44,081 nucleotides of DNA from a virus, in UHGV virus genome UHGV-0083269. The stretch is one strand, 5' to 3'. The position numbers and the translations under genes are program-made. The notes under the pieces were generated by a model. It was given only the letters and a program-made list of their open reading frames with translations. It searched no databases and was not told the DNA's origin. Shown piece after piece: positions 1-44,081 of the stretch. Numbering within the stretch: the stretch's first letter is position 1; each line of letters opens with the position of its first letter.

Positions 1-55
1 TTACTGGAAGCATCCATTTGTATCTTCTCATATGCTCAGTCCTTCAAATCTTAAT

Positions 56-274
56 TTAAACATATTCAAACTCATCCAGCTCCACATCTTTATCACATGC
101 TGGGCAAGTGCAGAAAGCACCATCCAGCCACGATTCTGTATTGTAATCAGCATCCTGAAACAGTATTTCAACATACTGCTTACAGTGTGGGCACTGGAAC
201 CGGATATAAGCTGGCTTGCTTATTATCATATAACGTGTACCCATGTAATCACCCCACATCTTAATTTTTTTCAT
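56..274 (-). CDS. small zinc-ribbon protein (CPHC...CPAC), early-region ORF
   Basis: 72-aa ORF with two CxxC pairs. The junction cassette lies upstream, at the 261..527 ORF boundary. Confidence 0.45.
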   Translation of the reverse strand: MKKIKMWGDYMGTRYMIISKPAYIRFQCPHCKQYVEILFQDADYNTESWLDGAFCTCPACDKDVELDEFEYV

Positions 275-527
275 TATCTATTCTTTTAAAACGAAATTCT
301 TGCTTTACATCTGGGTATTTTTCAGAATCTACTTTTGATATAAACATATCTAATGGTCTGACCCAAACCTGCGATGGATCTGAGAAATTTTTATAAACAA
401 CCATAATCTCTTCTGTTTCGCTGTTTACAGCTAGATCAGTTACTATATATGTGGCACCTTTGAAATGCTTATATCTATAACCGATCATTCCATTTTTCAT
501 GCAATTAACATGCTCTTGAATATTCAT
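261..527 (-). CDS. hypothetical early protein
   Basis: 88-aa ORF. It is packed tightly with its neighbours and preceded by the junction motif at 539-553. Confidence 0.4.
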   Translation of the reverse strand: MNIQEHVNCMKNGMIGYRYKHFKGATYIVTDLAVNSETEEIMVVYKNFSDPSQVWVRPLDMFISKVDSEKYPDVKQEFRFKRIDNEKN

Positions 528-548
528 TTACTGCCTCACAATCTTAAT

Positions 549-794
549 TTACACATTTACACCGTGCTCTTTCAAAGCCTGTGTCCAAGTTTCTTTTATC
601 TCCTTCGGGCAATGCGCCATAGCATCTGACCATGTAGGCCAACGCCCGTGCTGATCATAGAATTTATACTGATATGCAAGGCTATCCCGATTGTGCGGCT
701 GCTCCGGGTCATGCTTTACTGCACATTCCGGACAAGTTCCCTCCGGTGTTTTACCAAGCAGTGCCATTCCATATATTTTTTTCAAATATCCCAT
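549..794 (-). CDS. hypothetical early protein (Cys/His-containing)
   Basis: 81-aa ORF. Its stop codon lies inside the conserved TAAATTAAGATTG cassette. Confidence 0.4.
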   Translation of the reverse strand: MGYLKKIYGMALLGKTPEGTCPECAVKHDPEQPHNRDSLAYQYKFYDQHGRWPTWSDAMAHCPKEIKETWTQALKEHGVNV

Positions 795-816
795 ATCTCT
801 TCTTTCTCCTAAGATT

Positions 817-1092
817 TTAAAACTCAGTTACTCCATCCGGGCCTTCCAGATCTGCAGTATTGTCTTCGTACTCGCACCTGGAGATGAGGGTTATATTTTC
901 CACCGGGACCTTGCAGGTTTTCGCAAATCCAGCCTTCCACTCTTCTGCCATCACCGGAAGATTCACGCTTCCTAAATTTTCTGTGTCAAAATCAAACGCC
1001 ACCATCGCATAACCTGTGCTTTCCGGTCCACCGTATAAGTCAGCCCCTACGATCTCGTAATACAAACTTAATGTTACTTGTACTGTATTCAT
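817..1092 (-). CDS. hypothetical early protein
   Basis: 91-aa ORF with start at 1092. A GGGAGAG RBS sits in the cassette at 1093-1113. Confidence 0.4.
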   Translation of the reverse strand: MNTVQVTLSLYYEIVGADLYGGPESTGYAMVAFDFDTENLGSVNLPVMAEEWKAGFAKTCKVPVENITLISRCEYEDNTADLEGPDGVTEF

Positions 1093-1113
1093 CTTCGCTC
1101 TCCCAATCTTAAT

Positions 1114-1378
1114 TTACCTTCCTTGTGTTTCCACAACATTCAATATTTTTTCAACTGCCTTTTCCCAAAAATACCGGGCAAAATCTTCAACTGTACAAAC
1201 AACATCTTCGTCTAAATCTATAACGGTCGCATCATCGCATTGGCAGCTATGACAACCATTTTCTTGCAGAACTTCATCCGCTATTTCTCGGACAGTTTCT
1301 GCTGTTCCGCTGAATTCGCACCCCAACGAACAAAACTCTCTTAGTTCTTCCATATCCTTTTTTGATAATTTTGCCACT
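1114..1378 (-). CDS. Cys-rich hypothetical protein (probable GTG start)
   Basis: ORF track gives 1114..1395. A GGAGGGAG RBS is followed about 8 nt later by GTG near 1378. Cys-rich motifs: CSLGCEF, CHSCQC. Confidence 0.4.
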
Positions 1379-1404
1379 ATTATTTCTCCCTCCAAATTCT
1401 TAAT

Positions 1405-1608
1405 TTACCGATGATACCAGATCATCTTACCGTCTGCCATTTTTAATTCCACTTTGTCCGGATAATTGATGCTTTCCTTGGATGCGTGAAATCTCATGTC
1501 ATGAATTTCTAGTGCAGACTTATGGTTACTTTCGCACTGCTTACACTCATTTTTGTCTTTATACTGCGTACCACAATGGTCACATACATACAATTGTAAA
1601 CTTTTCAT
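1405..1608 (-). CDS. small zinc-finger protein (CDHC...CKQC)
   Basis: 67-aa ORF with two CxxC pairs. Its stop lies in a cassette copy at 1391-1407. Confidence 0.45.
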   Translation of the reverse strand: MKSLQLYVCDHCGTQYKDKNECKQCESNHKSALEIHDMRFHASKESINYPDKVELKMADGKMIWYHR

Positions 1609-1646
1609 CTTTTACGTTCTAAAATCTCCTTCTGGAATCTTAACTT

Positions 1647-1946
1647 TCAGTTTTCTCCAGCAAATCTCGGAACAAAAAAACCAAAATCAATTGCTGGAAA
1701 ACCATTCTTTCTGTTTATGTTGTTTCTAATTCCGTAAAAATCGTGCATAAAGTTGAAATCATCCGCATTCAGCCAAACATCCAAACGAAGGTGAAACTTT
1801 TTATCTGCGCTTTCAATATCCATCATACGTTCTGTAGCTTCCGTCTCTTTCATCAAGCCCATGACAGTGGCTCTTCCCATAATAGCAGCATACGTTAAAT
1901 GTCTCTTGCGTTCTACTTCTTTGTTAAAACTCGTAATCTTACTCAT
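1647..1946 (-). CDS. hypothetical early protein
   Basis: 99-aa ORF. A cassette (TAAATTAAGATTTGGAGGAAATGTGA ATG) lies upstream at 1950-1975. Confidence 0.4.
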   Translation of the reverse strand: MSKITSFNKEVERKRHLTYAAIMGRATVMGLMKETEATERMMDIESADKKFHLRLDVWLNADDFNFMHDFYGIRNNINRKNGFPAIDFGFFVPRFAGEN

Positions 1947-1961
1947 TCACATTTCCTCCAA

Positions 1962-2120
1962 ATCTTAATTTACCGCCATATAAATAAATGGCAAAAACAG
2001 AAACCACATAATATCATCTACTGTCCTCAGCTGGATTTCGCCGTACAGTAACAGCTCTAATCCCATCCATACCAGGGCCAGCACTATCCAAATATATACT
2101 GCCTTTAATGTCCTATCCAT
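1962..2120 (-). CDS. small hydrophobic (2-TM) protein, not in ORF track
   Basis: About 52-aa ORF, MDRTLKAVYIWIVLALVWMGLELLLYG... Its ATG overlaps the stop of 2113..2379 (ATGGATAG), suggesting translational coupling. Its stop falls in the cassette. Confidence 0.3.
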
Positions 2121-2379
2121 TGACCTGTCCTTTCTTGGCTGACATCATGCTCTTATTCGCCGGATTTTCCAGTTCAATCTGTATACCCTGCTTCTGCGGC
2201 TCTTTTACTCCTGTCATGCATTCTCTGATGTATCTATGCGGCACATCACATCCCACCGCATTCATGGCTATTTCATACTGCGCAGCCTGTTTCATCAGTT
2301 TATAAAAATCTGAAAACTTCACCTGCACTCTATCCTCTGCGCCAAACGTATCTGCTAATCCCATTTCATTTTCCTCCAT
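2113..2379 (-). CDS. hypothetical protein
   Basis: 88-aa ORF in the minus-strand operon. Confidence 0.4.
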   Translation of the reverse strand: MEENEMGLADTFGAEDRVQVKFSDFYKLMKQAAQYEIAMNAVGCDVPHRYIRECMTGVKEPQKQGIQIELENPANKSMMSAKKGQVNG

Positions 2380-2458
2380 ATTTCAGTTTGTGACATCACT
2401 GATAATCCCCCGCAGTTTCCTGCATTCCACTGTTGTTATTGTGTTTTCTTCCATCTCT

Positions 2459-3196
2459 CTATCCCTCCATGCTTAAATAACACATTATTCCGCAATCTGG
2501 AAATATCTCTGTATTCATATTCCCGCGTGTAGGCTCTAGCTCGTCAAGGTATACCGGGTGGCCTTTGCTGTCTTTCAATATTGCATAGCCCACCTGCCGC
2601 TCCAATCTGGCCCGACTCTCAAAAACCTCTGGGAAGTCCTTGCGAATCCGGTTCCAATAACCCATTCCTCCTTTGACGCACCCGAGGCAGTTATTATTTG
2701 GATACCCCATGTCATACATAACTGGCCGCCTAAAAGAAAAGGTCCTTTCAAATAGTCCGTGAACCTCTTCTTTCGATAATCCACGGTCAATCAACGGAAA
2801 CTCATGAGCTGCCTGTGAGTTAGCCTCTATGGTTCGCTCTGCCCGCCATTTCTCTTTCAGGTCAAATCCCCAGACATAGGTCAGATCATAATCTTTATGA
2901 GCTAACTCCCATTCTTTACGAACACGCTTTTTAAGCCAGTTTGTGCAGGGAGCAAAACCATTCATAGCACGAAAACCACCAAAAGCTCTGACACAATCAT
3001 CAACACTGCTGTATTCCTCAGATCTCAAAATCTGTATCTTCTGTCCGATTGCAGCTTCACAATCCCGTATAAATCGTATGCTGTCTGGATGCTGATCTTT
3101 GATATCTATATAAATCCATTCGTCAACATCTCCTGCCAGGTATCCAGCCATAAAACTGCTTACTCCTGCACTGATCCAACACACTTTTTTCGTCAT
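2459..3196 (-). CDS. PAPS-reductase-like (PP-loop ATP pyrophosphatase family) protein, phage type
   Basis: 245 aa. N-terminal CWISAGVSS PP-loop-like motif and C-terminal NCLGCVKGG, an architecture typical of phage PAPS-reductase-family (DndC/IbrA-like) proteins. Confidence 0.65.
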   Translation of the reverse strand: MTKKVCWISAGVSSFMAGYLAGDVDEWIYIDIKDQHPDSIRFIRDCEAAIGQKIQILRSEEYSSVDDCVRAFGGFRAMNGFAPCTNWLKKRVRKEWELAHKDYDLTYVWGFDLKEKWRAERTIEANSQAAHEFPLIDRGLSKEEVHGLFERTFSFRRPVMYDMGYPNNNCLGCVKGGMGYWNRIRKDFPEVFESRARLERQVGYAILKDSKGHPVYLDELEPTRGNMNTEIFPDCGIMCYLSMEG

Positions 3197-3371
3197 AACA
3201 CCACGCTACAAATGCTGTATCGTGGATCACCATTCGTTTGCTCTTATGCGACCTGTGCCGTTTCCAACACAAGCCTTATAGCCACGGTGTTGAATTTTTC
3301 GGTACGCCACCGTCATTCACTGCGCACCAACCCGGTTTACCGGGCATTCGTTATTCCTTTCTTTTAGTTAT

Positions 3372-3600
3372 AAATTTCATATTGCTCCTTAAATCTGTAC
3401 CATTTCCCGAACATCTCTCAGCGTTTTCGGTGTAGACTGCGCATAATACATACTTGTCACTGCCGGGCTTGCATGTCCTAGAATCTCTTGGATGATACCG
3501 ATATCAACCTTTCTGTTTTTTTAATTCATTCCAAGCGTTTTCCTCATTTTATGAGGATATACCGCGCTTTTCACATCCGCTCTCTTTCCAATATCTTAAT
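3372..3600 (-). pseudogene. truncated duplicate of the 3' end of tyrosine recombinase 41183..42316 plus downstream junction
   Basis: About 95% identical to 41162-41402. It translates to ...VDIGIIQEILGHASPAVTSMYYAQSTPKTLRDVREMVQI*, the recombinase C-terminus including the catalytic Tyr region. It has no N-terminal part and a 1-nt T-run difference. Confidence 0.6.
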
Positions 3601-3699
3601 AAAAGTCATCTGCATCGTCCAGAAAGTCCTCATAGACCTCGCATCCCTCGCAGGTCCGCTCGTTGCATTCCGTAATGTAGTTGCAATACGGGCACCTCA
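3597..3699 (-). CDS. micro zinc-ribbon ORF (about 33 aa), not in ORF track
   Basis: MRCPYCNYITECNERTCEGCEVYEDFLDDADDFY*. A cassette (TTAAGATTGGAGGATGCT ATG) lies upstream at 3700-3720. Confidence 0.3.
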
Positions 3700-3714
3700 T
3701 AGCATCCTCCAATC

Positions 3715-4011
3715 TTAAAATGAATACTTAACCCACATATACATTGTGCTCCCATCAATAGGATAGTAGTATGTGCCATCTCCGCAATCTTCCCCTCTCA
3801 TGGTTTGGTCACAATATTCTCCGTCAAGCTGTTCTTCCCCTTCTGCCAGCTGAGCCGTTCCGAATCCATCAACATAAAAATCTTCATAGCCGTTTTCATT
3901 CGCCCACTCTTCCAGTTCTTCGAAAAGTGTATTGGCCTCGTTCATCAATTTTTCATAGCGTGCCGCCTTTTTAGCCAATTCTATTGGTACAGTCATCCTT
4001 TCATCCTCCAA
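3715..4011 (-). CDS. acidic hypothetical protein
   Basis: 98-aa ORF. A cassette lies upstream at 4003-4020. Confidence 0.4.
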   Translation of the reverse strand: MEDERMTVPIELAKKAARYEKLMNEANTLFEELEEWANENGYEDFYVDGFGTAQLAEGEEQLDGEYCDQTMRGEDCGDGTYYYPIDGSTMYMWVKYSF

Positions 4012-4014
4012 ATC

Positions 4015-4554
4015 TTAATTTCTTATCTCTTGTCTCGATAATCCCTCTCCTCCTGTATTTAATCTCTTAAAAAGCTCATATCTCATTTTAAATTCACTTT
4101 CTTTAAGAATGATTTCTACTCTACATGGTGTACGCTTAATTTGCAATTTATATTCCAATGGTAAAGTATCAATAGTAATATCTTTCAACCCCTTAAGCAT
4201 ACTTCCCTCTACTAATTTCAAGCCATTTTTAGGGTAAGGATTTCCCTCTTCATCTTTTAATTCATTAAAAAAAGATAACACCGTCGATACTCTTTGCAGT
4301 CCATCAATCAGTTCCCATTTTCCATCTGGATTTGTAGCCACAAAAATAGACGGAAAAGGAATCCCTAATAATATTGATTCTATAAAATCTGACTGTCTTT
4401 GTTCATCCCATCGAAAAGCTCTTTGATATTCTGGAGAAATAATTATTTCTTTATCTCTATACATATTAATTATCTCTCCAAAAGACATATCCATCCTCTC
4501 TGATTTTATTTCTTGCCGATATTTTTGAATCTCTGCACTAATATCCATAATCAT
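4015..4554 (-). CDS. DUF262 / ParB-Srx-fold (DGQQR-motif family) protein
   Basis: 179 aa with ...ELIDGLQRVSTV... matching the (I/V)DGQQR signature of DUF262/GmrSD-N/DndB-like domains. AT-rich. It sits 37 nt downstream of the Dcm gene on the same strand. Confidence 0.55.
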   Translation of the reverse strand: MIMDISAEIQKYRQEIKSERMDMSFGEIINMYRDKEIIISPEYQRAFRWDEQRQSDFIESILLGIPFPSIFVATNPDGKWELIDGLQRVSTVLSFFNELKDEEGNPYPKNGLKLVEGSMLKGLKDITIDTLPLEYKLQIKRTPCRVEIILKESEFKMRYELFKRLNTGGEGLSRQEIRN

Positions 4555-4590
4555 GCTTCTCCTATATTCTACTTTCTAAACACTATATAC

Positions 4591-5976: not shown

Positions 5977-6022
5977 TTCTTTTACCTCTTTTTATATTCT
6001 TGTAAAGATCCTTTTCTATTTT

Positions 6023-6514
6023 TTAGTATGATTTTATAAAATCTTTAATCTGTTGTTTCAGATATTTCTTGTTAAACCAAAAGCATTGTTTTGTCATGTA
6101 TTCTCCAGTAGGTATCAAAGTATTTTTCAATTCCTCTGGAATTTCTTTTAGCGTGATAACCTCTGCCGTTTTTTTCAACCTCACTGAATTAGCATTTTCA
6201 CAAAAATACTCGCTCTCACCAGCTTTATTTCTTACATGTGCCACATTATTAAAGTTGCTTTTCGGAAAATTATTTTCATATACGAATACTGGATCTGTTA
6301 CATTGGTCCTGTATACAGCACTGCGCCTGCATTCGCAATAAACATATACCCTTACAAGATCATGCAGCGGAGTGATCGCTCCACATCTGCACCTGTAATG
6401 ATCTGACTTCCGTCTTCCGCAATACGCATTCAGCATCCCACACTTTTCACAGCGGATAGCAAGAAAACCTTTGTATCCTTCTTCCGGCTCTATTTTCTGT
6501 ACTTTTTTGTTCAT
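6023..6514 (-). CDS. Cys-rich putative zinc-binding protein
   Basis: 163 aa with multiple CxxC pairs (CEKCG, CRCG, CECRR). Confidence 0.4.
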   Translation of the reverse strand: MNKKVQKIEPEEGYKGFLAIRCEKCGMLNAYCGRRKSDHYRCRCGAITPLHDLVRVYVYCECRRSAVYRTNVTDPVFVYENNFPKSNFNNVAHVRNKAGESEYFCENANSVRLKKTAEVITLKEIPEELKNTLIPTGEYMTKQCFWFNKKYLKQQIKDFIKSY

Positions 6515-6896
6515 TTTTTCCCCTTTCCAAATTCCCGCCGTTATTAGTAATTACTCATGTTTGTGGGCTTTTTTGTGCTGCTCTGTGGTCCCTCCTTTTG
6601 GGCCGGGAAATGGAGGACTGTGATAGGCTCCCGGCCCAGGTAAAATTATCGGTCAGAGTGTATATCGTGACATATAAACCGACCACAAGTTTTTTATCTA
6701 TGTATCATCCCCGTTTTGGATCGGGGTGGATACCTTTTTTATAGCTTTATGCGTCCGTCTGTTTGGATCTGGGCATAAAGCCGTGCCGTCATATGCTGGT
6801 CTCCTGAAGCTTTCGCTCATAGGAGATGGGTATTTTTCCAAATATGCCAGCTCGGCCATTTTCTTTTTTACACTTTTTTCATGGTATGTAACTTTA

Positions 6897-9112: not shown

Positions 9113-9742
9113 TCACTTCCGCGTAAGACCCTCATCTGCCTTGTCTGGCTTTTTATTAAGTATTTCCATTGCTTTTTTCCAATCCTCAAGTCTAAGATCA
9201 TGCACGTCAGTCACATTGTATGTCTGCAATATTCCTTTAAGGCCTACCCCAGTTCGTTGAAGCTCGGCAAATAATTCATTTACGTACCCCGCTTCAAGCA
9301 CTGGCTTACTCGGCAGCGGTGTTTCTGCATCTGGGTCTTTCATTTCTTCTGTCGGGATGCAAAAAACCTGGAAGCACGCATATTTAAATGCTATTGACAT
9401 TGCTTTGTTGGTCGCTTTGTCGCCGCTGTCCATTCCTTCACCGATCACCGTTGCAGAAACGGAAGATCCATCTTCTGCATAAAAAGTATATTTCACAGTG
9501 CAGATGGAGTAGATCAGATTTCCGCCCTTTGCCGTGAGACGTTCTTCACGTCTCTGTTCCAAAATCTCCGGCACAACAAATAATTTGTGTTTTATCAGCG
9601 CCGGATTGATCGCATTCATGACAGCATCAATACCGCGATACATGAATCGTTGCTGTTCATTTCGGCTATCCTTTCCAACCGCTCCGATTTCAGCCATGAC
9701 GGCAGTTATCGTCTCATAAATATTTTTCTTCTTCTCATCCAT
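9113..9742 (-). CDS. erf: ERF-family single-strand annealing protein
   Basis: 209 aa. ...NEQQRFMYRGIDAVMNAINPALIKHKL matches the ERF conserved block. Its position after Gp157 is typical. Confidence 0.6.
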   Translation of the reverse strand: MDEKKKNIYETITAVMAEIGAVGKDSRNEQQRFMYRGIDAVMNAINPALIKHKLFVVPEILEQRREERLTAKGGNLIYSICTVKYTFYAEDGSSVSATVIGEGMDSGDKATNKAMSIAFKYACFQVFCIPTEEMKDPDAETPLPSKPVLEAGYVNELFAELQRTGVGLKGILQTYNVTDVHDLRLEDWKKAMEILNKKPDKADEGLTRK

Positions 9743-11302: not shown

Positions 11303-11444
11303 ACTACCCCCGATCTTGTAAATGCTCTTGTGTTCAAAGCCAGTGTAAAAACCCATAAGCATCCAATCTAACGCGTAGCACTGCTACCGTGTTGCGCCTA
11401 CTTACGGGCCGGAGAGGCTCCTGCCAGCTCCGGGCATACAGCTA

Positions 11445-11495
11445 TTTACATTTACCTTTACATTTACATTAACATTTACCTTTACATTAGGTTTT
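11445..11495. repeat. tandem degenerate 8-10-mer array (CATTTACA / TTTACCTTTA / CATTTACATT...)
   Basis: Visible tandem TTTAC(A/C)TT units in the divergent promoter region. Confidence 0.6.
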
Positions 11496-11504
11496 CTGAT
11501 TACA

Positions 11505-11545
11505 TAACCTATGGTTTTTAAATTAAAAAACCTATGGTTATTTAC
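11505..11545. promoter_or_regulatory. two copies of the operator-like inverted repeat AACCTATGGTT, just upstream of a TATAAT -10
   Basis: AACC-TAT-GGTT at about 11507 and 11530. A third copy lies at about 14731 upstream of int. TGTGATATAAT at about 11555-11563 and an AAAGGAGAAG RBS precede the ATG at 11582. Confidence 0.5.
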
Positions 11546-14915: not shown

Positions 14916-16157
14916 ATGGCAAAAGCAAAAAAATTACCCTCAGGATCATGGCGTGTACTGGTGTTTGACCACTACGAGCCTGTCTTAAATCCAGACGGAA
15001 CACCCGTCATGCAAAACGGAAAACCGAAACAAAAAAGAATATATCAGTCCTTTACGGATGATGACCCGTCAACCAAAGGACGCAAACGGGTCGAATTGGC
15101 AGCTGCACAATACATGGCAGAGAAAGATTCACGTGAAGCGGAAAGGCGCAACCAAGAGGAGAATATGACGCTTAGAGGGGCGGCAGAAAAATATATAGAT
15201 CTGTGCAGAACATTGAAAAGGTCTCCGTCCACCATAGAAGACTATGAGTGTATCATGCGGAACGGGTTCCAGGATCTTTTTAACATGCGCCTGTGTGACA
15301 TATCGGAAGATCTACTGCAAAACGCCATAGCCAAAGAAGCGCAGAGGCCTGTCAACGGGAAGCCGGGTAAAACCCTTACAGCAAAGCGGCTGAAAAATGA
15401 ATGGGGGTTTGTATCCTCTGTGCTGCACAAATACACAAACATCCGCACCGACAATCTGCAATTACCTACGCCAACGCAAAGAATGGTTGACCTGCCAGAT
15501 GCAAAAACAGTAATGGACATAGTACGCGGCACCGAAATGGAGCTGCCGGTGCTGCTTGCAATGTGGCTGTCGTTCACGGCATCGGAGATCCGCGGTCTTA
15601 CAAAATCCAAATCAATTAATGGTGATTACATAACAATAAAAGAGACGGTCATTACCGTAAAAGGAAAAGCTGTAAGAAAAGAGACAGCGAAGAACAACAC
15701 GAGAAAACGCAAACACAAAATACCGGCTTATATAAAAGGTCTGATCGACAAGGTTCCTGGCGATGTACTGGTGCCGATGACTGATGTTTCATTGCACCAC
15801 CGCTGGAAACGCTTACAAAAAAGCTACGGTATAAAAGACCCTATCACGTTTCACGACCTCAGACATCTTAATGCCTCAGTAATGGCCCTGCTGCAAATAC
15901 CGGATAAATACGCTCAGGAGCGCGGTGGCTGGAAGTCGGATGCTGTCATGAAAAAGATCTACATGCAGACATTTTCGTCGGAGCGGCAAAAGGTTGATGA
16001 TAAAATTGACAGCTACTTTGAGAGCATCGTGGGAACCGAAAAAAGCGAAAAAGAATCCATAAAAGAAGTTGTGAACCGGCTGAAAAAAGAAGATCCAGAG
16101 GGATGGAAAAAAGCCATTTTAGAAGCTATGCAACACGAAATGCAACACGCGCAATAA
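14916..16157 (+). CDS. int: tyrosine integrase with N-terminal arm-binding-type domain
   Basis: ATG at 14916 after an AAAAGGAG RBS. HDLRH (HxxR) box and catalytic Tyr in GGWKSDAVMKKIY. N-terminus MAKAKKLPSGSWR is typical of phage Int. Confidence 0.9.
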   Translation: MAKAKKLPSGSWRVLVFDHYEPVLNPDGTPVMQNGKPKQKRIYQSFTDDDPSTKGRKRVELAAAQYMAEKDSREAERRNQEENMTLRGAAEKYIDLCRTLKRSPSTIEDYECIMRNGFQDLFNMRLCDISEDLLQNAIAKEAQRPVNGKPGKTLTAKRLKNEWGFVSSVLHKYTNIRTDNLQLPTPTQRMVDLPDAKTVMDIVRGTEMELPVLLAMWLSFTASEIRGLTKSKSINGDYITIKETVITVKGKAVRKETAKNNTRKRKHKIPAYIKGLIDKVPGDVLVPMTDVSLHHRWKRLQKSYGIKDPITFHDLRHLNASVMALLQIPDKYAQERGGWKSDAVMKKIYMQTFSSERQKVDDKIDSYFESIVGTEKSEKESIKEVVNRLKKEDPEGWKKAILEAMQHEMQHAQ

Positions 16158-16382: not shown

Positions 16383-16553
16383 ATCCATGCGTTATCTTTC
16401 CCAGCGTTATTCCATGCCATATAAGGAATGCAAGGCAGTCCTTACAGATATTGGTACAGAAGAACTGGCTCATCTGGAGATTGTGACGACTATTATAGTA
16501 CTAATCCTGGATAGTGGAGAGCGCCGTCCTGGTCAGGAGTAAGTACTACTGGT
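16383..16553 (+). pseudogene. fragment of a Mn-catalase / CotJC-family gene
   Basis: Translates to MRYLSQRYSMPYKECKAVLTDIGTEELAHLEIVTT..., matching the conserved N-terminal block of Mn-catalase/CotJC (..RYL.QRY..P...LLTDIGTEE.AHLEMI.TM). The fragment covers only about 45 residues and diverges where the lysin gene begins on the other strand. Confidence 0.55.
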
Positions 16554-35862: not shown

Positions 35863-35869
35863 ATACTCC

Positions 35870-36265: not shown

Positions 36266-36269
36266 AGCA

Positions 36270-37487
36270 TTATCCTTTCTTCAAATACGCATATCTTTTT
36301 GCCGCTCCTCGCGCCTTTGCCGCCTGTTCTCTTCCCCATTTGGCAATTCTGAGGCGGTCATCCAGTAGACGTAAGTCATTGGCTTTGCAAAAATCATTGT
36401 ACGCCCGGTTCTGCCTCTGTAAAAGATACGACTTTCGATCTAACTCCTCTTGTAGTTCTATCCTCAGTGCATCATCATTGCAGGTGTCTACAGCCGTTTG
36501 CAAGCCCATAACCATTTGCTTTGTCTTTCTGATTCTTCGCTCTAATGCTCGCTGCCTCTGCTCTAACTTTTCCAGCCTCACATTATCCTCTGTCTCTATA
36601 TCCTTATACGGGTTGTTTACCCCGTCACCGGGTCCAAAGCTGTGGCGGCAGTTCCAGCCACTTAACCCTTCGCCTGTCCCGTATCCAGTCACAGAAAATG
36701 GCGGGTATCGTTTATCTTGCCCCGTCCGGCTGTAAAACTGTCCTTGCCACCACAAATGGTTACCTGGATTCTGCCCGCCGTCTCCCGTTCGCGCCCCAAT
36801 ATGTGCCGACACAAGGATTATATCCCACTCCTGTTCCTTCATGCGCTCCATAGATATATCACCGGCTGCCTGGGCGATTCCCGTACGAACAGCCCGTGCC
36901 GTAGCTGTCTCAAGTGTATCTTTGTGCCCTGTTGGATACTGCACCACAACGCCATTCTGCGATATAGTGTCAACAGCCTCTTTTACAGCCTGTGTGTAAG
37001 AGACAGCACCACTCATAACCTTATGATATGCACTATCGCATTCGCTTATAAAAAGGCTTTGAGCCGCTTCCGCTGTTGTTCTGGTCATGTTTGACCACTC
37101 TCCCATAGTAGCCTCATAGTCTCTTTGCAACATTCGCAATAGCACCGGGGACTGTTCCAACGCTTCTGGTGCAATCCCAGCCGCTTCGTATATGGAGTTA
37201 TCATAGGCCGCAGCTTTTACGTTTGCATCCTCCATTGCTGAGGCAACTTCTTTTCTTTGTAAGCGCGTACGGATAGCGATTTCCTGTGTAATATCTTCCA
37301 GCAAGTATCCGGCATCTTGCAATATTTGTAGGCGCCACCGGTCGGAAGAGGTAAATATATATTTTTCTCCACGCCCCAGGCGGATCATGACAGCTTCTAT
37401 GATTCGGCTGATAATATAGTTATGTAGCGAAGATGCTATATCCTCGCTACCCTCTGCTATTTGTCTCAGATAATTTGGTGTCAGCAT
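36270..37487 (-). CDS. head morphogenesis protein, SPP1 gp7 / Mu F family
   Basis: 405 aa, immediately after the portal gene. ...VSAHIGARTGDGGQNPGNHLWWQGQFYS conserved block. Confidence 0.7.
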   Translation of the reverse strand: MLTPNYLRQIAEGSEDIASSLHNYIISRIIEAVMIRLGRGEKYIFTSSDRWRLQILQDAGYLLEDITQEIAIRTRLQRKEVASAMEDANVKAAAYDNSIYEAAGIAPEALEQSPVLLRMLQRDYEATMGEWSNMTRTTAEAAQSLFISECDSAYHKVMSGAVSYTQAVKEAVDTISQNGVVVQYPTGHKDTLETATARAVRTGIAQAAGDISMERMKEQEWDIILVSAHIGARTGDGGQNPGNHLWWQGQFYSRTGQDKRYPPFSVTGYGTGEGLSGWNCRHSFGPGDGVNNPYKDIETEDNVRLEKLEQRQRALERRIRKTKQMVMGLQTAVDTCNDDALRIELQEELDRKSYLLQRQNRAYNDFCKANDLRLLDDRLRIAKWGREQAAKARGAAKRYAYLKKG

Positions 37488-37494
37488 TCCTCAC

Positions 37495-38922
37495 CTACTC
37501 CTCTTCAAATAGTCCTTTTTCTTTCGGTTGTGCTTCTTCCACCATTGCTTTTGCGTCCTCTTCTGTCATACCCTCAAATTTGACAAAATACATCCATGCC
37601 GGGACTTTTCCTTGTGCCACATACTGCCACCATCTGCCACGGTCAGCTTCGCGATCATAAAGGATATCCCCAAAGTCGTAGATGACATCATACGTCCCTA
37701 CAGGTGATAGGCCGTACAGATCCGCGTACACATTAAGGGCATATACAGTATCATCAAGACACGCTTCCAGTTGATCACGCACATCCTTGATAAACTGGAC
37801 AGTGCGCTGCTGGTCGGCTTCTACACCTGTTGCCGTCTGGATTCCGGAAGACTCATTAAAAACAAAGTACCCGTTTGCGAATCCGGCCTTGTATCCTATC
37901 TGACTTAACAAATGATTGATTCCCTTGATTCTGACATCTGTGTTAAGCTGTGGGTTGATTTCCTGATAAAATTCTTTCTGATCATTGCCAAACACGTTTT
38001 TTACATAATGTGGCAATCCCTTTGCATCAGCCGGGCCGCGGTGTTTTATACTCTTTCCGCTTTCGTAAAGCAGACGATCATCGGCCAGAATAATTTTTTG
38101 ACTGTCAAATATCTCTCCCGCATTCCGGCTGTATGCTATGTCAAGGTCTTTCAGTTCTTCCACGGCTTCGCGGAATATCGGAAGCCCCAGTGGGGACGAT
38201 ATATCTACGTTGTTTGCCTGCGGCGTGCGGAAGATACCGAACATTGGCTTGTCCAGTGGCTCCCCGGATGCCTTAAGAATCGGCGGTGTGTCCTCCAACA
38301 TATCGGCCCATTTGGTTTGCGTAAGCGGTATCGGGTCTCCCAGACTTTCCTCCGACTTAGAAACGTACGCTCGGTTGCTTACATAGTAAGGATAGATCGT
38401 CACACCATCCTGCACCGTCTCAACAAATCTGTGATATTCCAGACGGGTGTACCATTTCTTCCCGGACTGGTACGAATCCTTGAAGATAATGCCGCGCACA
38501 GCAAGATTGTCGTAATCAACAAGCAGCACGTCCGCCGGGGTAAATGCATCCAGGCTTGTGCCGTTTGGCTTTAAAAACACCGTACCATATGCACAGCCGT
38601 ACTCCACCCAGTCTCGAAGCTTTGGATAAACTAAATCTATCTGCTGCTGTAGCCATTCCGCCCGGTCACTGCCTTCCAGGTGTATACCAATTCCAAGAGT
38701 TACTAGGCGGGCTGTCTCAGAGCAAAGAGCCTTTGCAAAATTGATAGTCTTAATACCCTCATCATCGTCCAACCACTCCGGCTGACCGTGGTATATCTTC
38801 GCACACTGATCTATAGCTTTTTCCATCTCTGGAGATACGATGGATTCCACATCAAAGTCGTTCTCTGCCTGCCGTTTAAAAATCATGTTAAACCACCTTT
38901 TTATCGTTGATAATATTCCCAC
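37495..38922 (-). CDS. portal protein (SPP1 gp6-like)
   Basis: 475 aa, directly downstream of terminase. Typical size and position. Confidence 0.8.
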   Translation of the reverse strand: MGILSTIKRWFNMIFKRQAENDFDVESIVSPEMEKAIDQCAKIYHGQPEWLDDDEGIKTINFAKALCSETARLVTLGIGIHLEGSDRAEWLQQQIDLVYPKLRDWVEYGCAYGTVFLKPNGTSLDAFTPADVLLVDYDNLAVRGIIFKDSYQSGKKWYTRLEYHRFVETVQDGVTIYPYYVSNRAYVSKSEESLGDPIPLTQTKWADMLEDTPPILKASGEPLDKPMFGIFRTPQANNVDISSPLGLPIFREAVEELKDLDIAYSRNAGEIFDSQKIILADDRLLYESGKSIKHRGPADAKGLPHYVKNVFGNDQKEFYQEINPQLNTDVRIKGINHLLSQIGYKAGFANGYFVFNESSGIQTATGVEADQQRTVQFIKDVRDQLEACLDDTVYALNVYADLYGLSPVGTYDVIYDFGDILYDREADRGRWWQYVAQGKVPAWMYFVKFEGMTEEDAKAMVEEAQPKEKGLFEEE

Positions 38923-40550
38923 TATGCACTATTCCCCCGTCTCTCCCACAGCGATTCCGTAGCGTAACGGGTCGCATCAATGAGATGGTTATTTTTGTCT
39001 GGATATCCGCTTATGACGTTGCCGTCCTTATCCCGCTCGTACTCATACTCTTTAAATTCGTTGCAAGCGTTAGGCGTTCTGTTCGGGTCCATGACAAATT
39101 TTTTCCCTTGTAACCACTTCATTGAGTACTCAATGCTGCCAGGTCCTTTATGTGCTGCTCTGGCTGGTAGCCCTGAATCTCTGTAATCCTCAACAGATTT
39201 TGGCTCTGCACTATCGCATGTTATAACATAGTCATCATATTTGCGCCGTTTGATTTCGGCGGCTGTCCAGCTGTTCTTTTTCTTGTTTTCATAAATCTCG
39301 TCTATGAAATATATGGTTTCGCGCGCCGAATCGTAATATATCCTTACAAAAGCATATTTATCTGGGTACCATCCCCAGTCAACACCTTGATATATGCGAT
39401 CCATGATTTTGATTTCTTCATCTGTGATAGTGCGCTCTTCGATAAATTCGAAGACGTTGCCGCCGTTTCCGTTCGCTTCACCCATATACTCATTTTCATA
39501 TGCGCTTGGATTGACCTCTTTTAGATGTTCTGCATCGTTAAGAAATTCCTCTCCCAGCCAGTCATCAGGGACATCTTTGTATGTGCTTCGCATAACAACG
39601 GCGCTCGCGTTTTTAAACTCTGCCTCTACAGTATACTTATTGGCCCAGTTGATCTTGCTTCTCGGTGGGTTAAATGATTTAAACTTATATGCTTTGTCGC
39701 CGCCACGTATAGCAGACTGCTGGATACTTCTAACTTCTTCCGGTCCGGCAAACTGGTCTAATTCCTCGAACCACACAATACCGATATATCCGAACTTCGG
39801 CTTAATTGATTTTATTTTAATCGGATCATCCGCGCCTCGGAAATAGATTTTCTGTCCGGTTGGCTTATACGTAATCTCAAAAGGCGATTGTTTGAATTTA
39901 AACTCTGCATCAATGCCAAGCTTTGAGATCGCCCATTGTAGCTGCGCATATACAGAATCTTTTATGGTGTTTCCGACTTTTCGCAGCACAAGCGCATGCA
40001 TATCAGGATGTTTTTTTATCAGCTCCGGGATAATACATGATATGCAAGACGATTTCGAGGATCCTCGCCCGCCTGGAAGCACATACTCCGTATGCATGCC
40101 GCGCCGGATGTCGCGAATCATCGGGTGGAATACATCCGCCACCACATCAAGATCGATGTGATATTCTTTTGCCGTTCTGGCTTCCTCTTCTGCCTTCTGC
40201 TGTGCTTCTTTTTCCTCTTTTACGGCTATAGCTTTCTCCAAATCGGACATGGCCTTTAGCTGTTCGGAAAAAGCCGGAGCGAAGCCAAAAGAATCCTTTA
40301 CTTCCCCCCGTGCGATCATGGCGCGGCGCTTCTGGATATCAGCAAGGGACATGGTGTCAGTACCGTTGCGCCTATCAAGTTCTGCCTGTTTGTCCGCTAT
40401 ATAGGCCAAAACATCAGCATTCTTCAACAGTCTGCATCCTTCCTGTTCTGGCTTCTTATATCCAGCTTTTCTCGCCGCATCAGTTGCATTCCCGCCGTTT
40501 TCTATGAAATTTTTCGCGAACGCTTCCCGCTTCGGCGTAAGCTCGGCCAT
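38922..40550 (-). CDS. terL: terminase large subunit with fused N-terminal small-subunit (Terminase_2-like) domain
   Basis: N-terminal LTPKREAFAKNFIENGGNATDAARKAGYKKPEQEGCRLLKNADVLAYI matches the TerS Terminase_2 motif. Then Walker-A-like VLPGGRGSSKSS and a PBSX-type TerL nuclease region. 542 aa. Confidence 0.8.
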   Translation of the reverse strand: MAELTPKREAFAKNFIENGGNATDAARKAGYKKPEQEGCRLLKNADVLAYIADKQAELDRRNGTDTMSLADIQKRRAMIARGEVKDSFGFAPAFSEQLKAMSDLEKAIAVKEEKEAQQKAEEEARTAKEYHIDLDVVADVFHPMIRDIRRGMHTEYVLPGGRGSSKSSCISCIIPELIKKHPDMHALVLRKVGNTIKDSVYAQLQWAISKLGIDAEFKFKQSPFEITYKPTGQKIYFRGADDPIKIKSIKPKFGYIGIVWFEELDQFAGPEEVRSIQQSAIRGGDKAYKFKSFNPPRSKINWANKYTVEAEFKNASAVVMRSTYKDVPDDWLGEEFLNDAEHLKEVNPSAYENEYMGEANGNGGNVFEFIEERTITDEEIKIMDRIYQGVDWGWYPDKYAFVRIYYDSARETIYFIDEIYENKKKNSWTAAEIKRRKYDDYVITCDSAEPKSVEDYRDSGLPARAAHKGPGSIEYSMKWLQGKKFVMDPNRTPNACNEFKEYEYERDKDGNVISGYPDKNNHLIDATRYATESLWERRGNSA

Positions 40551-40568
40551 CTACTCACCATCCTGTCA

Positions 40569-40826
40569 TTACTTCCAGTCCTCCAGCGCTTCCCACATCT
40601 CTTTCAGTACCATAACAACATCCACCTGTGATGCCGTCCGAATAATCTCATAGTCCTTTGTCTTCCACTTATCCCGCACGTATTGCAGTGTAGGTGTGCT
40701 CACGCTGTACATAGTTATCATCCGGTTCTGGTCTGCGCTGTAAAACTGGCTTGTGCCTATCTTTGTTACAAACCGCTTTGTGAGCAACGCTCTTTGCAGC
40801 TTTCTTTGTATCTGGTTAAGGTTCAT
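40569..40826 (-). CDS. hypothetical protein upstream of terminase
   Basis: 85-aa ORF. Confidence 0.35.
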   Translation of the reverse strand: MNLNQIQRKLQRALLTKRFVTKIGTSQFYSADQNRMITMYSVSTPTLQYVRDKWKTKDYEIIRTASQVDVVMVLKEMWEALEDWK

Positions 40827-40960
40827 ACTATCACCCTATTTTCATTTTATTTCAATTAAAATAAAGGTGTATCACCGCTTTGTGATGATACACCTTGTTG
40901 GTTACCATTATATTCTTATACGCTCTCCTCATTATTGTCCTGCCAGGAGCATGCAGAATT

Positions 40961-41143
40961 TCAGTTTAATTGAGAATCTACTTTCTCATAATTTACAAAT
41001 TCAGTTTCGTAATTTGGTTTATGAAGAGTTAAATCCATTATGTCAATGCAATTATAACAAGGTGCTTCAACAGTCATCTTTCCCTTATGCTTGCAAGTTC
41101 CACAAGGCGTATAATCCTTTCCATCTTTCAAAAAACCTTTCAT
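40961..41143 (-). CDS. small zinc-ribbon protein (CGTC...CYNC)
   Basis: Likely start MKGF after the cassette TTAAGATTTGGAGGAGGATTA ATG. Confidence 0.4.
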   Translation of the reverse strand: MKGFLKDGKDYTPCGTCKHKGKMTVEAPCYNCIDIMDLTLHKPNYETEFVNYEKVDSQLN

Positions 41144-41182
41144 TAATCCTCCTCCAAATCTTAAATTCATTAAATCGGCTCC

Positions 41183-42316
41183 TTAAATCTGTACCATTTC
41201 TCGGACATTTCTTAACGTCTCCGGTGTAGACTGCGCATAATACATGCTTGTTACTGCTGGGCTTGCATGTCCTAAAATCTCTTGGATGATACCGATATCA
41301 ACCTTTCTGTTTTTTAAATTCATTCCAAGCGTTTTCCTCATTTTATGAGGATATACCGCGCTTTTCACATCCGCTCTCTTTCCAATATCTTTAATTATGA
41401 CTCTTAAACCGCATACGCTCATTTTATTGTATGGTGCCCTGGTCTGTGGAAACATGTACGGGCTGCTGTCCGTTCTGCTTTCAAGATATTCATTGTAATA
41501 GTGCCTTGCATCATCATCAAGGTATAATGTGCGGTATCTGCCGCCCTTCTCCCCTTTGATGAGTATATCTCCCGTTTCTGTATTGATCTGGTCGATTCTG
41601 ATCTCTGAGATTTCTCCAACCCGCGCTCCGGTGCTGCGGAATACCTCAATGATCGCACGCTCTCTTTTTGTGCGGCAAGCGTCACGCATCTGGATAATCT
41701 CCGACCGGCTAAAGTAATCAATTGGCTTTAGCGCAATCTTTTTCGCTTCCGTTGCTTCCACAGGATTTTCATCAATGAGTTTTGATTTTCGCATCCATGT
41801 GTAAAAAGCCGAAAGGAATCGGCGCTCGTTATTGTATGTGCTGTCCTGTACCTTTTCACTTTTTGTTCCTGGGCGTTTCTCGTACTGTGCCAAATACCAC
41901 TCCACATCAAATGTATCTACACTGTCCAACGACTTCCCCATCATGTCAGATAACCTTTTTACAGATCGGATATATCCGCTGATTGTCGCAGGACTGAGCC
42001 CGCGCTTTTTGATCTTGAAAAGTTCCAGTAAATAGCGGTTTCTTTTTTCTACATCTGTTTTCCACTCCGCTGGAAGAGATGTGATTTCCTGCACATTTAC
42101 CTTTGTAAGCTCACTCGATACTACACTATCCAGGATTGCAAGTGTGTCCGAATCAGAAATGTAAATCGACATTGCAACAATGATGTTATCAACGATTTCT
42201 CTTTTGATATTCTGGCCCATAGTAATCCTCCCTCTTGCAGAATCTGCAAAGGTCTGATACAATGGACCTAAGCAGATCAGGTAAGTGGCGGTAACATCTT
42301 GGCGGGTGTCCACCAC
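41183..42316 (-). CDS. second tyrosine recombinase (XerC/D-like or phage-integrase family)
   Basis: ARVGEISEIR (Arg), HKMRKTLGMNL (HxxR), LGHASPAVTSMYYAQ (His...Tyr). Confidence 0.85.
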   Translation of the reverse strand: MVDTRQDVTATYLICLGPLYQTFADSARGRITMGQNIKREIVDNIIVAMSIYISDSDTLAILDSVVSSELTKVNVQEITSLPAEWKTDVEKRNRYLLELFKIKKRGLSPATISGYIRSVKRLSDMMGKSLDSVDTFDVEWYLAQYEKRPGTKSEKVQDSTYNNERRFLSAFYTWMRKSKLIDENPVEATEAKKIALKPIDYFSRSEIIQMRDACRTKRERAIIEVFRSTGARVGEISEIRIDQINTETGDILIKGEKGGRYRTLYLDDDARHYYNEYLESRTDSSPYMFPQTRAPYNKMSVCGLRVIIKDIGKRADVKSAVYPHKMRKTLGMNLKNRKVDIGIIQEILGHASPAVTSMYYAQSTPETLRNVREMVQI

Positions 42317-42336
42317 TTATTTTTTTGTGTCATTGT

Positions 42337-42651
42337 CTAGCTCCTTTTATACTTCCAAAAGCCAAAAAGCTTAAGTCTGTGGTAAAATTCTGCTTTTACT
42401 TTCCTCCGGTATCCATAAAAGTCATCTGCCTTTGCCGGAATATCTCTCCCACGCCGGATCAGCGTATAATATCCGTCTCCAGTCACCAAGCTATCATACG
42501 TTTGGATTTCAAGCCCTGGCGCTTTTGATATCGCACAGCCAAATAGTATGATTTTTATCTCAGGATCCGGACTCCTGCAATATAGGTCAAGTTGTGATTC
42601 GTCCTCTTTTGGCACGTTGTAGTCAGATAACTTAGCTTCTCTTGTCCTCAT
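42337..42651 (-). CDS. hypothetical protein
   Basis: 104-aa ORF upstream of the recombinase. Confidence 0.35.
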   Translation of the reverse strand: MRTREAKLSDYNVPKEDESQLDLYCRSPDPEIKIILFGCAISKAPGLEIQTYDSLVTGDGYYTLIRRGRDIPAKADDFYGYRRKVKAEFYHRLKLFGFWKYKRS

Positions 42652-42972
42652 CTAATCTCCTTCTTCTTTTTTTGCTGTCAGATATATCGTAGACAAATTA
42701 TAGCCACTCCGTTTGAGGCGTTTTACAATCTCGTCCCGGTCTTTTAACAAACTTCTCTTTGCTCTGTCTTTTACTGGTTTTTCTTCTTTTTTCTTGGTTA
42801 CAAGCTTATAGCATCCCCAGCAGATCCTATAGTAGCCACCTCTAGCTTTCTTTTGCCCGTTACACCAACCTGTCCCGTTGTCGTAGTAGCATGACATTCT
42901 TTTCCCCTTTCCGCAGCTATCCGGCGCATGGCTGCTATTACGTATTCCGTGCCCGGGTTTGTTTTTTTCCAC
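42652..42972 (-). CDS. Cys-rich basic hypothetical protein
   Basis: 106 aa. CYYDNGTGWCNG...CWGCYK. Confidence 0.35.
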   Translation of the reverse strand: MEKNKPGHGIRNSSHAPDSCGKGKRMSCYYDNGTGWCNGQKKARGGYYRICWGCYKLVTKKKEEKPVKDRAKRSLLKDRDEIVKRLKRSGYNLSTIYLTAKKEEGD

Positions 42973-43022
42973 ATGGCTGTATCTCCGCTAAATTTCAGTT
43001 TTACTGCATAACGTTATTAATT

Positions 43023-43196
43023 TTATGCAACTTTATCCTCTGCCTCCAGGAAGGCTGCAACAGCCTTTTTTATCAGCCACGCTATGGTTCTTTCATTCTT
43101 CTGGCAGTAAGCCACTACTTGCCGGAGCTGCACAGGATCCATGCTCACGCTCTGTCTGACGGCTTTATCTTCTGCTTTCTTCTTCGGTCTTGCCAT
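43023..43196 (-). CDS. ribbon-helix-helix (CopG/Arc-like) regulator, not in ORF track
   Basis: MARPKKKAEDKAVRQSVSMDPVQLRQVVAYCQKNERTIAWLIKKAVAAFLEAEDKVA* shows a beta-strand then two helices typical of RHH. Confidence 0.4.
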   Translation of the reverse strand: MARPKKKAEDKAVRQSVSMDPVQLRQVVAYCQKNERTIAWLIKKAVAAFLEAEDKVA

Positions 43197-43240
43197 ATCA
43201 CTACCTCCCTTTCCGTATGCTTATTAAATTTTGGGTTATT

Positions 43241-43527
43241 TCAGTTTTCCATATCAAGCTCTTCGCAAATTTCCTCGTAATACCTCTTTTCATCCGCAAA
43301 ATGGTCGTACACCATTTCCTCTACCATCATTTTGGCATCATGCTCACACATTTCCTTGCCGGTCAGCAAGTCCCAGTATGTATCGAGCACATTCGATGTT
43401 GTAAACCAATCTCCCTCTGAATCTCTAAACAACGCCACTATGACTTTGGGATCATCTCCATGATGCCCGAACACAAGCGTGTGAACCACTGCGCCGGATG
43501 GTTCTTTGCTCTCTACCCACTTTTTCA
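43241..43527 (-). CDS. hypothetical early protein (start MKKW)
   Basis: Cassette TTAAGATTTGGAGGATACT ATG. Confidence 0.4.
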
Positions 43528-43546
43528 TAGTATCCTCCAAATCTTA

Positions 43547-44081
43547 ATATACAAATAACTCAATCAATATCTCCAGAATCGTCATCATTTCAATTTAAGA
43601 TTTTTCCATAGCTGGTAACATTTCTTACAAGCCAAACCTGGATTTTTTTCTATTTCTTCAGTATCAATATCAGTTGTGAAAAAATCTTGATCTTGCCAAT
43701 ACTTTTCGCACAAAGACGTATTTTTAAAAAAACAGTGATATTTTGCTTTAGGATGAATCCAGTCAACGTTTGTAAGATTACTTTGCTTTACTGGAAGCAT
43801 CCATTTGTATCTTCTCATATGCTCAGTCCTTCAAATCTTAATATACAAATAACTCAATCAATATCTCCAGAATCGTCATCATTTCAATTTAAGATTTTTC
43901 CATAGCTGGTAACATTTCTTACAAGCCAAACCTGGATTTTTTTCTATTTCTTCAGTATCAATATCAGTTGTGAAAAAATCTTGATCTTGCCAATACTTTT
44001 CGCACAAAGACGTATTTTTAAAAAAACAGTGATATTTTGCTTTAGGATGAATCCAGTCAACGTTTGTAAGATTACTTTGCT
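43547..44081. repeat. 294-bp tandem direct duplication (unit 43547-43840; second unit 43841-44081 continuing into 1-53)
   Basis: The sequence from 43841 is identical to 43547 onward. Window bases 1-53 equal 43788-43840, so the end joins the start in phase. Confidence 0.85.
43585..43818 (-). CDS. 77-aa Cys-containing early protein, tandemly duplicated (copy 1)
   Basis: MRRYKWMLPVKQSNLTNVDWIHPKAK...CKKCYQLWKNLKLK. A second identical copy begins at 43879 and runs off the window end into positions 1-31. Confidence 0.45.
   Translation of the reverse strand: MRRYKWMLPVKQSNLTNVDWIHPKAKYHCFFKNTSLCEKYWQDQDFFTTDIDTEEIEKNPGLACKKCYQLWKNLKLK

Follow-up and report, generated by a model that had tools for sequence, protein, structure and literature searches.

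A tandem gene cassette at the ends of a circular temperate phage genome, within a motif-bounded array shared by gut phages

In T4-type phages, small orphan genes in the hyperplastic region are flanked by a conserved intergenic motif, the promoter-early stem-loop (PeSL), which consists of a promoter and a terminator in ~100 bp and gives rise to mobile regulatory cassettes (Arbiol et al. 2010, PMC2839356; Comeau et al. 2014, PMC4122927). PeSLs bound the indels between near-identical phages, and recombination between flanking motifs has been proposed to yield deletions, insertions, and circles. "Boundary" or "linker" sequences are also a feature of lambdoid phages. The mosaicism of temperate phages has been attributed to relaxed homologous recombination with Rad52-like recombinases; Erf, Red-beta, and RecT are efficient on short and diverged substrates and drive this mosaicism (De Paepe et al. 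2014, PMC3945230). Integrons are ordered arrays of promoterless cassettes, mostly with a single open reading frame (ORF) each, with attC (a structured, imperfect inverted repeat) at the 3' end of each cassette and the tyrosine recombinase IntI nearby. Here, we describe a viral genome of 44,081 nt, UHGV-0083269 (this whole stretch is "the window"), whose ends meet inside a repeated 294-bp unit. We call this unit the c0 cassette, and it is one member of an array of small genes.

Our overall reading, to which we give a probability of about 0.7, is that the window is a circular temperate phage with a tandem c0 cassette, and that the tandem arose by unequal recombination at 11-nt cores within a shuffled array. 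Circularity and completeness are ordinary. The interest lies in the membership of the unit in a motif-bounded, shared cassette array, and not in the circle.

The array contains ~15 promoterless small-gene cassettes and lies between the replication and recombination genes and the terminase. Most of the cassettes begin with aaATTAAGATTtgGAGG, and in the upstream half of the array (Table 1) this motif is ahead of most genes. The c0 cassette comprises the boundary core, a leader with a ribosome-binding site, a 77-amino-acid (aa) ORF, and a 36-nt trailer. The first-pass annotation of this genome had described the repeated unit as a 77-aa gene with its junction cassette. This description missed both the wide sharing of the unit and its conserved boundary motif.

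In the collection, 2,646 blocks contain the identical 77-aa protein, and c0 is present in at least four unrelated phage backbones. In the ten places on the longest contigs, c0 is accompanied by Terminase_3 with an SPP1 portal, by Terminase_6N with a P22 portal, by GpA with Phage_portal_2, or by the window's own PBSX/SPP1-type genes. The replication modules also differ among these ten contexts, and the c0 DNA is 98.1-99.7% identical to that of the window. As for the backbones themselves, homology between the window and the L004/L006 type is detectable only in the recombinase gene (64%).

Across 15 loci, c0 has 8 different upstream neighbors and 6 different downstream neighbors. In all 15, the upstream context switches right before ATTAAGATTTG and the downstream context switches right after the next ATTAAGATT. 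More broadly, when the window's array is compared to foreign loci, 61 of the 96 internal homology breakpoints are within 15 nt of a core, versus 6.3% of random positions. Judging from these comparisons, the c0 unit is real and mobile. A motif-bounded cassette array that is common to unrelated gut phages is a variant of the known modular shuffling of phages.

The arrays also vary among nearly identical phages. We clustered all ORFs and described each array as a string of cassettes. The window's array is c40 c3 c4 c76 c77 c78 c17 c79 c132 c42 c0 c0 c1 c2 c6 c7. Four other arrays are found on backbones with 99.96-100% identity to the window: the same string with one c0 (L012); c40 c3 c4 c0 c1 (L017); c40 c3 c4 c18 c0 c1 (L011 and L014); and ...c79 c344 c345 c0 c1 (L013). 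A second backbone carries c18 c15 c0 c81 (L004), c18 c15 c0 c0 c82 c295 c296 c81 (L006), or c0 c18 c0 c1 (L008).

The boundary motif is enriched in the window and has a fixed orientation. The 9-mer AATCTTAAT occurs 7 times (0.88 expected); all 7 copies are in the array and point the same way, and looser forms of the motif precede ~12 genes. The core lies just upstream of the ribosome-binding site. In IMG/VR, the 18-mer AAATTAAGATTTGGAGGA is found in 66 loci. The 8-nt core, in 65 of these loci, has 160 sense occurrences versus 8 antisense, with a median spacing of 314 nt, and the consensus across these 65 loci is aaATTAAGATTtgGAGGa followed by the start codon. (Many of the motif-bearing IMG/VR contigs are from one metagenome, 3300045988, which is also the source of contig Ga0495776_139611, discussed below.) In 1.2 Mb from 80 terminase-related prophage loci of GTDB species representatives, the core is no more frequent than background (23 and 30 occurrences), so the motif marks a pool of phages and hosts rather than the terminase lineage. 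The nearest of these terminase-related genomes are from Blautia sp. MSJ-19 (73%), Marvinbryantia, Eisenbergiella, and Blautia producta.

Within positions 1-4200, neither promoter-like sites (13 versus 10.6 expected) nor terminator-like sites (2 versus 2.2 expected) are in excess. We found no secondary structure at the boundaries (folding energies of ~0 kcal/mol, z > 0), and the core has no palindrome, flanking inverted repeats, or hairpin. We did not find the motif string in the literature. The element resembles a region of translation initiation that is extended and unstructured; it may be kept for expression, for recombination, or for both.

The closest analogue is the PeSL shuffling of T4-type phages. 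In both systems, there is a hyperplastic region whose small orphan genes have a conserved intergenic motif on either side, and the motif bounds the indels between near-identical phages, as we found when we compared the arrays above. In both, recombination between flanking motifs would give deletion, insertion, and circle products. But the shared element here has only ~9-17 nt, fused to the ribosome-binding site, and the boundaries have no enrichment of promoters or terminators and no stem-loop. Also, the phages here are temperate siphoviruses of gut Firmicutes, and their cassettes cross between unrelated backbones.

Where the ends of the window meet, the repeat continues in phase. Tandem Repeats Finder (TRF) reports a period of 294 nt with 1.9 copies at 43533-44081. 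With base 1 placed after base 44081, the window matches itself at offset 294 without a mismatch over 305 nt (43538-43842 matches 43832-44081 plus 1-55), which is the 294-nt unit plus a shared 11-nt core. The window's start and the sequence from 43788 onward share a prefix of exactly 55 nt and diverge at base 56, while the window's end and the stretch that ends at 43787 share a suffix of 250 nt. A 55-nt exact continuation across the joined ends cannot be due to chance. The first-pass annotation had inferred contiguous ends, citing the reappearance of the 44081/1 join in the internal sequence at about 43775-43800. We reproduced this match, and the contiguity of the ends is confirmed by the 305-nt repeat. 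The unit is completed by bases 1-55, slightly more than the 1-53 given originally. The second copy of the 77-aa ORF straddles the junction on the minus strand (43879-44081 plus 1-31).

The 11-nt core CAAATCTTAAT is found at 43538, 43832, and 45, that is, at both outer joints and at the inner joint. The c1/c0 joint reads ...TATCCTC-CAAATCTTAAT-ATACAAAT; the c0/c0 joint reads ...AGTCCTT-CAAATCTTAAT-ATACAAAT; and the c0/c42 joint reads ...AGTCCTT-CAAATCTTAAT-TTAAACAT. The middle joint combines the left flank of one outer joint with the right flank of the other, so the crossover lies inside the 11-nt core.

Independent contigs confirm that the window is a complete, circularly assembled phage genome, as the first-pass annotation had proposed. 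L012 (ENA ERZ914767, contig k127_71674), which is from a separate sample, crosses the junction: it matches the window without gaps over 7,018 nt at 99.99% identity, from 6763 down through 1 and into 44081-43827, and the match then runs on to 28922 at 99.98%. L012 is 43,914 bp, or 43,787 + 127, and 43,787 is the length of the window minus 294. (43,787 is also the spacing of repeat D3.) Several other contigs also have the size of a circle plus k. L170 (k119), which is 100.00% identical over 21,242 nt, has 43,906 bp (43,787 + 119). L017 (k141), whose array is 1,914 nt shorter, has 42,014 bp (41,873 + 141). L014 and L011, whose arrays are 1,600 nt shorter, have 42,242 bp (42,187 + 55) and 42,286 bp (42,187 + 99). 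The same-backbone contigs, at 42-45 kb, differ in their start points and are circular permutations of one another. The identical terminase is found in 42 collection blocks, mostly on contigs of 20-50 kb (42-45 kb for those we retrieved).

L172 and L173 are integrated copies; they match the window up to 16210, beyond which host genes follow. Since attP is ~16.2 kb into the window, the window's ends are not att sites. A 35-mer across the junction had no match in IMG/VR. Among isolated phages, we found no close relative: a megablast of positions 20000-44081 against INPHARED gave only partial matches at 74-80% identity.

A random cut would fall inside the 588 bp of the repeat with a probability of ~1.3%, and from the window's start to the divergence of c0-to-c42 and c0-to-c0 there are exactly 55 nt. 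Bases 1-55 fit a branch vertex of a de Bruijn graph with k=55 (SPAdes goes up to 55 by default), from which the assembler would have set out. The longest edge would start at this vertex and be followed by the unit edge, the joint edge, and then the unit edge a second time; the path would then close on its starting vertex, and the 55-nt overlap would be trimmed. Since the cut was set by a graph branch, its position has no biological meaning: it is neither a pac site nor a terminus. Because the joint edge is in the path, the copy-to-copy joint must have existed in the reads.

Another contig, Ga0495776_139611 (L015 and L177; JGI 3300045988; 43,680 bp), is 100% identical to the window wherever we retrieved it, and both of its ends are inside c0, at nt 75 and nt 183 of c0. 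These are ~55 nt to either side of a single-nucleotide polymorphism (SNP) at nt 132. It does not count as a single-copy circle: with both ends inside c0, it is uninformative about copy number. The c0 cassette is a recurrent assembly breakpoint. As a practical matter, a window whose ends meet may be handled as a whole genome, but a repeat at the cut is a warning of an assembler branch and not of a biological terminus, and copy number there needs to be read from the reads.

How would the tandem arise? We propose unequal crossing-over between the identical 11-nt cores that flank c0 (16 nt with one mismatch), probably between replicating sister genomes or co-infecting genomes. The outcome would be a duplication along with a reciprocal deletion or a circle. 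The phage's Erf annealing protein (Table 1) probably assists. More generally, cassettes would be exchanged, inserted, deleted, and duplicated by recombination within a short shared sequence.

The first-pass annotation took the 294-bp unit to be genuinely duplicated. The repeat is certainly in the sequence, and a duplication in this sample is plausible. We infer that both copies are on one molecule, and this is probably so for a substantial part of the phage population in the sample. Several points weigh against this reading. L012 has a single unit in a 99.99%-identical genome, and four other same-backbone contigs (L011, L013, L014, and L017) also have a single c0; these five are all the other contigs of this backbone with a readable locus. 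If one edge was used twice in the graph path, the two copies are identical by construction and their identity is uninformative. Since c0 is common to co-resident phages and breaks assemblies, graph tangles are expected here. As for the mechanism, 11 nt is short for canonical homologous recombination, and the role of Erf, like the timing of the duplication, is something that we infer.

These points raise the question of an assembly-graph artefact. The genome would have one copy of c0 (43,787 bp, like L012 and probably L170, whose size of 43,906 bp fits a single copy); the joint would come from a minority variant or a co-resident phage, and the assembler would have threaded the loop into the contig. 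The exact 55-nt vertex at the window's start fits this explanation, as do the presence of c0 in several phages within one sample and the existence of L006-type phages that carry the joint. But the joint edge requires 56-mers that span it, so a tandem c0-c0 must have been present somewhere in that sample. Also, low-coverage edges are usually pruned, and the minimal path through the joint yields exactly two copies. We consider an artefact to be unlikely, although it is the alternative that we take most seriously.

Duplication of c0 is seen elsewhere. L006, which is from another sample and another phage (with a P22-type portal), has the same 294-nt c0-c0 tandem with the same joint in the middle of its contig, and the L006 prophage is integrated adjacent to cotJA-cotJB. 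At SNP 39, both L006 copies have C and both window copies have T, so these were independent duplication events. L012, as the one near-identical genome in which the locus is readable, gives the single-copy parental allele (43,787 bp). With TRF, we found no other long-period tandem duplication besides that of L006 among the other fetched loci, with the terminase relatives L090-L169 set aside, so cassette duplication is not general. A 39-mer from c0 had no match among the GTDB species representatives and was found in only 5 loci from metagenome_contigs and 2 from IMG/VR, none of them tandem.

Alternatively, the joint might come from excised 294-bp cassette circles, which the flanking cores would release as the reciprocal product when they recombine, with no tandem in the genome. 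The joint is exactly what such a circle would hold, and PeSL mini-circles have been detected experimentally in T4-type phages (PMC2839356). Also, c42 and c1 are known to be adjacent without c0: they follow each other directly in L176 (ENA ERZ10620848, 1073-1599). However, a 294-bp circle would be poorly represented in shotgun libraries, and the L006 tandem is embedded mid-contig. We view circles as quite improbable. (The c42-c1 adjacency in L176 is also what a reciprocal deletion would leave, but the downstream context differs, with a DUF4317 gene.)

Another explanation for two identical copies at the cut is that the 294-bp repeat is a physical direct terminal repeat (DTR) of a linear virion genome whose terminal copies were naively joined. 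This seems very improbable, the least probable of the alternatives that we considered. Unrelated phages also carry the unit, as a bounded gene cassette, and it is found within an integrated prophage as well. The window does not have one copy of the repeat at each end: it starts 239 nt into the unit, and its beginning and its end are not the same sequence. Circles from MEGAHIT close with one copy and k-sized overlaps, and the terminase is of the headful type.

The crossovers themselves could instead be site-specific: a Xer-like tyrosine recombinase at the distal end of the array might act on the ATTAAGATT core, as in an integron. The cassettes are promoterless, and this recombinase gene lies between the array and the terminase in two otherwise different backbones (the window and L004/L006/L008, at ~11.5-13.8 kb in the latter). 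Against this, c0 arrays also occur in L005, L007, L009, and L010, for which no such gene is recorded; the core is neither a palindrome nor flanked by inverted repeats, and it forms no hairpin; and the recombinase scores 55 bits on the integron-integrase model (TIGR02249), versus a cut-off of 265. Also, one crossover took place at a look-alike of the core in a coding region. A 214-nt direct repeat with 94% identity (3384-3597 and 41178-41391) places a decayed fragment of the recombinase gene at the upstream end of the array and the intact gene at the downstream end. The fragment's ATTAAGAT core aligns with ATTAAAGAT inside the coding region of the intact gene, so the look-alike served as the crossover point, which favors homology-driven over site-specific exchange. 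We think that site-specific movement is improbable, though slightly less so than excised circles.

The array does resemble an integron in its order, in its promoterless and mostly single-ORF cassettes, in having the same cassette in many contexts, and in the tyrosine recombinase nearby. But the boundaries have no attC hairpin, a trailer is missing altogether from several cassettes, every cassette brings its own ribosome-binding site, the recombinase is not IntI, and some backbones have arrays without the recombinase. We rejected membership among the integrons, which fails on both attC and IntI. The resemblance to relaxed-recombination mosaicism is in the phage-encoded annealing protein of the Erf/Red-beta/RecT class and in the exchanges at short shared sequences at gene borders. 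The substrates in that work had hundreds of bp, far more than the shared sequence here, and what is exchanged here are single ~300-bp genes with a dedicated repeated motif.

Tentatively, we can extend the proposal of homology-driven shuffling further than we would bet on: diverse temperate phages of gut Clostridia might draw on a common pool of ~300-bp promoterless single-gene cassettes, moved from one unrelated genome to another by annealing-type recombination at a 9-17-nt aaATTAAGATTtgGAGG element that is fused to the translation start. The c0-c0 joint would then be a fresh footprint of this process, either a duplication or a circle intermediate.

Besides the array, the window has all modules of a phage genome (Table 1). 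We identified a capsid protein, a scaffold protein, a tail fibre, a 926-aa protein at the position of the tape measure, and an endolysin, as well as the terminase, the portal, and a gp7-like protein. The CI-like repressor, the M78 peptidase, and the integrase are genes of temperate phages, and further modules include ERF, Gp157, a C5 methylase, and a GmrSD_N protein. The phage is a temperate, siphovirus-type phage, and its hosts are Lachnospiraceae-like Clostridia of the human gut.

Table 1. Coordinates of the array, the repeat, and other features in the window
Feature	Position	Strand	Remarks
Upstream half of array: c15, recombinase fragment, c40, c3-c4, c76, c77, c78, c17, c79, c132-c42	1..4019	-	
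Final 55 nt of repeat copy II	1..55	.	identical to 43788-43842
11-nt core, boundary of c0 and the 72-aa gene (c42)	45..55	+	same core as middle joint
3'-end copy of Xer-like recombinase gene, decayed	3384..3597	-	94% identical; 5' edge is ATTAAGAT core
ERF-family single-strand annealing protein, candidate catalyst of short-homology recombination	9113..9742	-	PF04404, 7e-30
Lysogeny integrase, tyrosine type	14916..16157	+	attP crossover ~53 nt downstream, ~16210
SPP1 gp7-like minor capsid protein	36270..37487	-	PF06152 (Phage_min_cap2), 1e-70
Portal protein	37495..38922	-	phrog_533, 1e-93; A118-type model below cut-off; no Pfam match
Large terminase, PBSX/SPP1 type	38922..40550	-	TIGR01547 (PBSX family), 148.6 bits vs cut-off of 105
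Downstream half of array: c0, c0, c1, c2, c6, c7, Xer-like recombinase, c11	41143..44081	-	
Second, Xer-like tyrosine recombinase, distal end of array	41183..42316	-	best model Xer-like, below cut-off
Repeat copy I, 305 nt including both flanking 11-nt cores	43538..43842	-	contains c0 ORF
11-nt core, boundary of cassette c1 (99/95-aa gene) and c0	43538..43548	+	same core as middle joint
c0 ORF, 77 aa	43585..43818	-	cassette c0
Middle joint core CAAATCTTAAT (minus strand ATTAAGATTTG)	43832..43842	+	B-type flank left, A-type flank right
Repeat copy II, first 250 nt; rest in bases 1-55	43832..44081	-	ORF 43879-44081 plus 1-31

The packaging genes resemble those of the SPP1/PBSX/A118-type pac siphoviruses: the large terminase (TerL) is of the PBSX family, the gp7-like protein is present, the portal matches the A118 model though only below its cut-off, and a circular assembly is as expected for permuted genomes. 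The best solved relative of TerL is the nuclease domain of SPP1 G2P (PDB 2WBN, 3e-37), followed by Sf6 gp2 (7e-9). Unlike in those phages, TerL here has a fused N-terminal domain that is similar to small subunits (Terminase_2, aa 4-117, followed by Terminase_3/3C). We identified no separate gene for the small terminase subunit upstream of the large terminase. The closest GTDB relatives of TerL (from Blautia, Marvinbryantia, and Eisenbergiella) match from aa 3-4, and distant ones match only from about aa 115-135. These similarities suggest that headful packaging of the SPP1 type, which the first-pass annotation had put forward, is likely. A circular assembly by itself does not separate pac, cos, and DTR genomes. 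Headful packaging did not place the cut.

Each backbone has its own lysogeny integrase, which is separate from the Xer-like recombinase: it is of the tyrosine type in the window and of the serine type in L004/L006/L008. About 180 nt beyond the attP crossover, at 16387-16542 (+), there is a 51-aa fragment of a gene for Mn-catalase (CotJC-like), and the unrelated c0-bearing prophages L004, L006, and L008 are inserted right after cotJA-cotJB, with a serine recombinase. This suggests that cotJC is a common integration target.

The intergenic region where the early leftward genes and the lysogeny module diverge contains, at 11444-11539, 7.5 copies of ATTTAC and 2.2 copies of a 23-nt unit, which might be repeats of an operator or an origin. 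At the array's head, a 245-aa protein (2459-3196, minus strand) is similar to PAPS reductase and SspD (phrog_424, 4e-31; PADLOC SspD, 5e-10), and a 179-aa protein (4015-4554, minus strand), which adjoins the C5 methylase, has a truncated GmrSD_N/NsnA-like domain (PADLOC NsnA, 1e-46). These two genes may be related to DNA modification or counter-defence.

The c0 protein has no family match in Pfam, PHROG, or PADLOC, and its homologs form only 21 clusters. The conserved residues are H21, H27, C28, C36, C63, and C66, and this pattern suggests that c0 binds zinc. An AlphaFold2 model of c0 is confident (predicted local distance difference test, pLDDT, of 90.5), and this model had no fold match in PDB or BFVD. 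The cassettes, and c0 above all, are candidates for roles in host takeover or anti-defence that spread faster than the phages that carry them.

If the tentative proposal of a common cassette pool is true, then phages would have an integron-like form of gene exchange that is free of recombinase sites, with c0 as its most promiscuous cargo. The locus is a clean natural experiment, as backbones that are 99.96-100% identical carry different cassette arrays. It lets one ask if a translation-linked motif is kept for expression, for recombination, or for both, and cassette-level gene flow among gut phages could be measured here.

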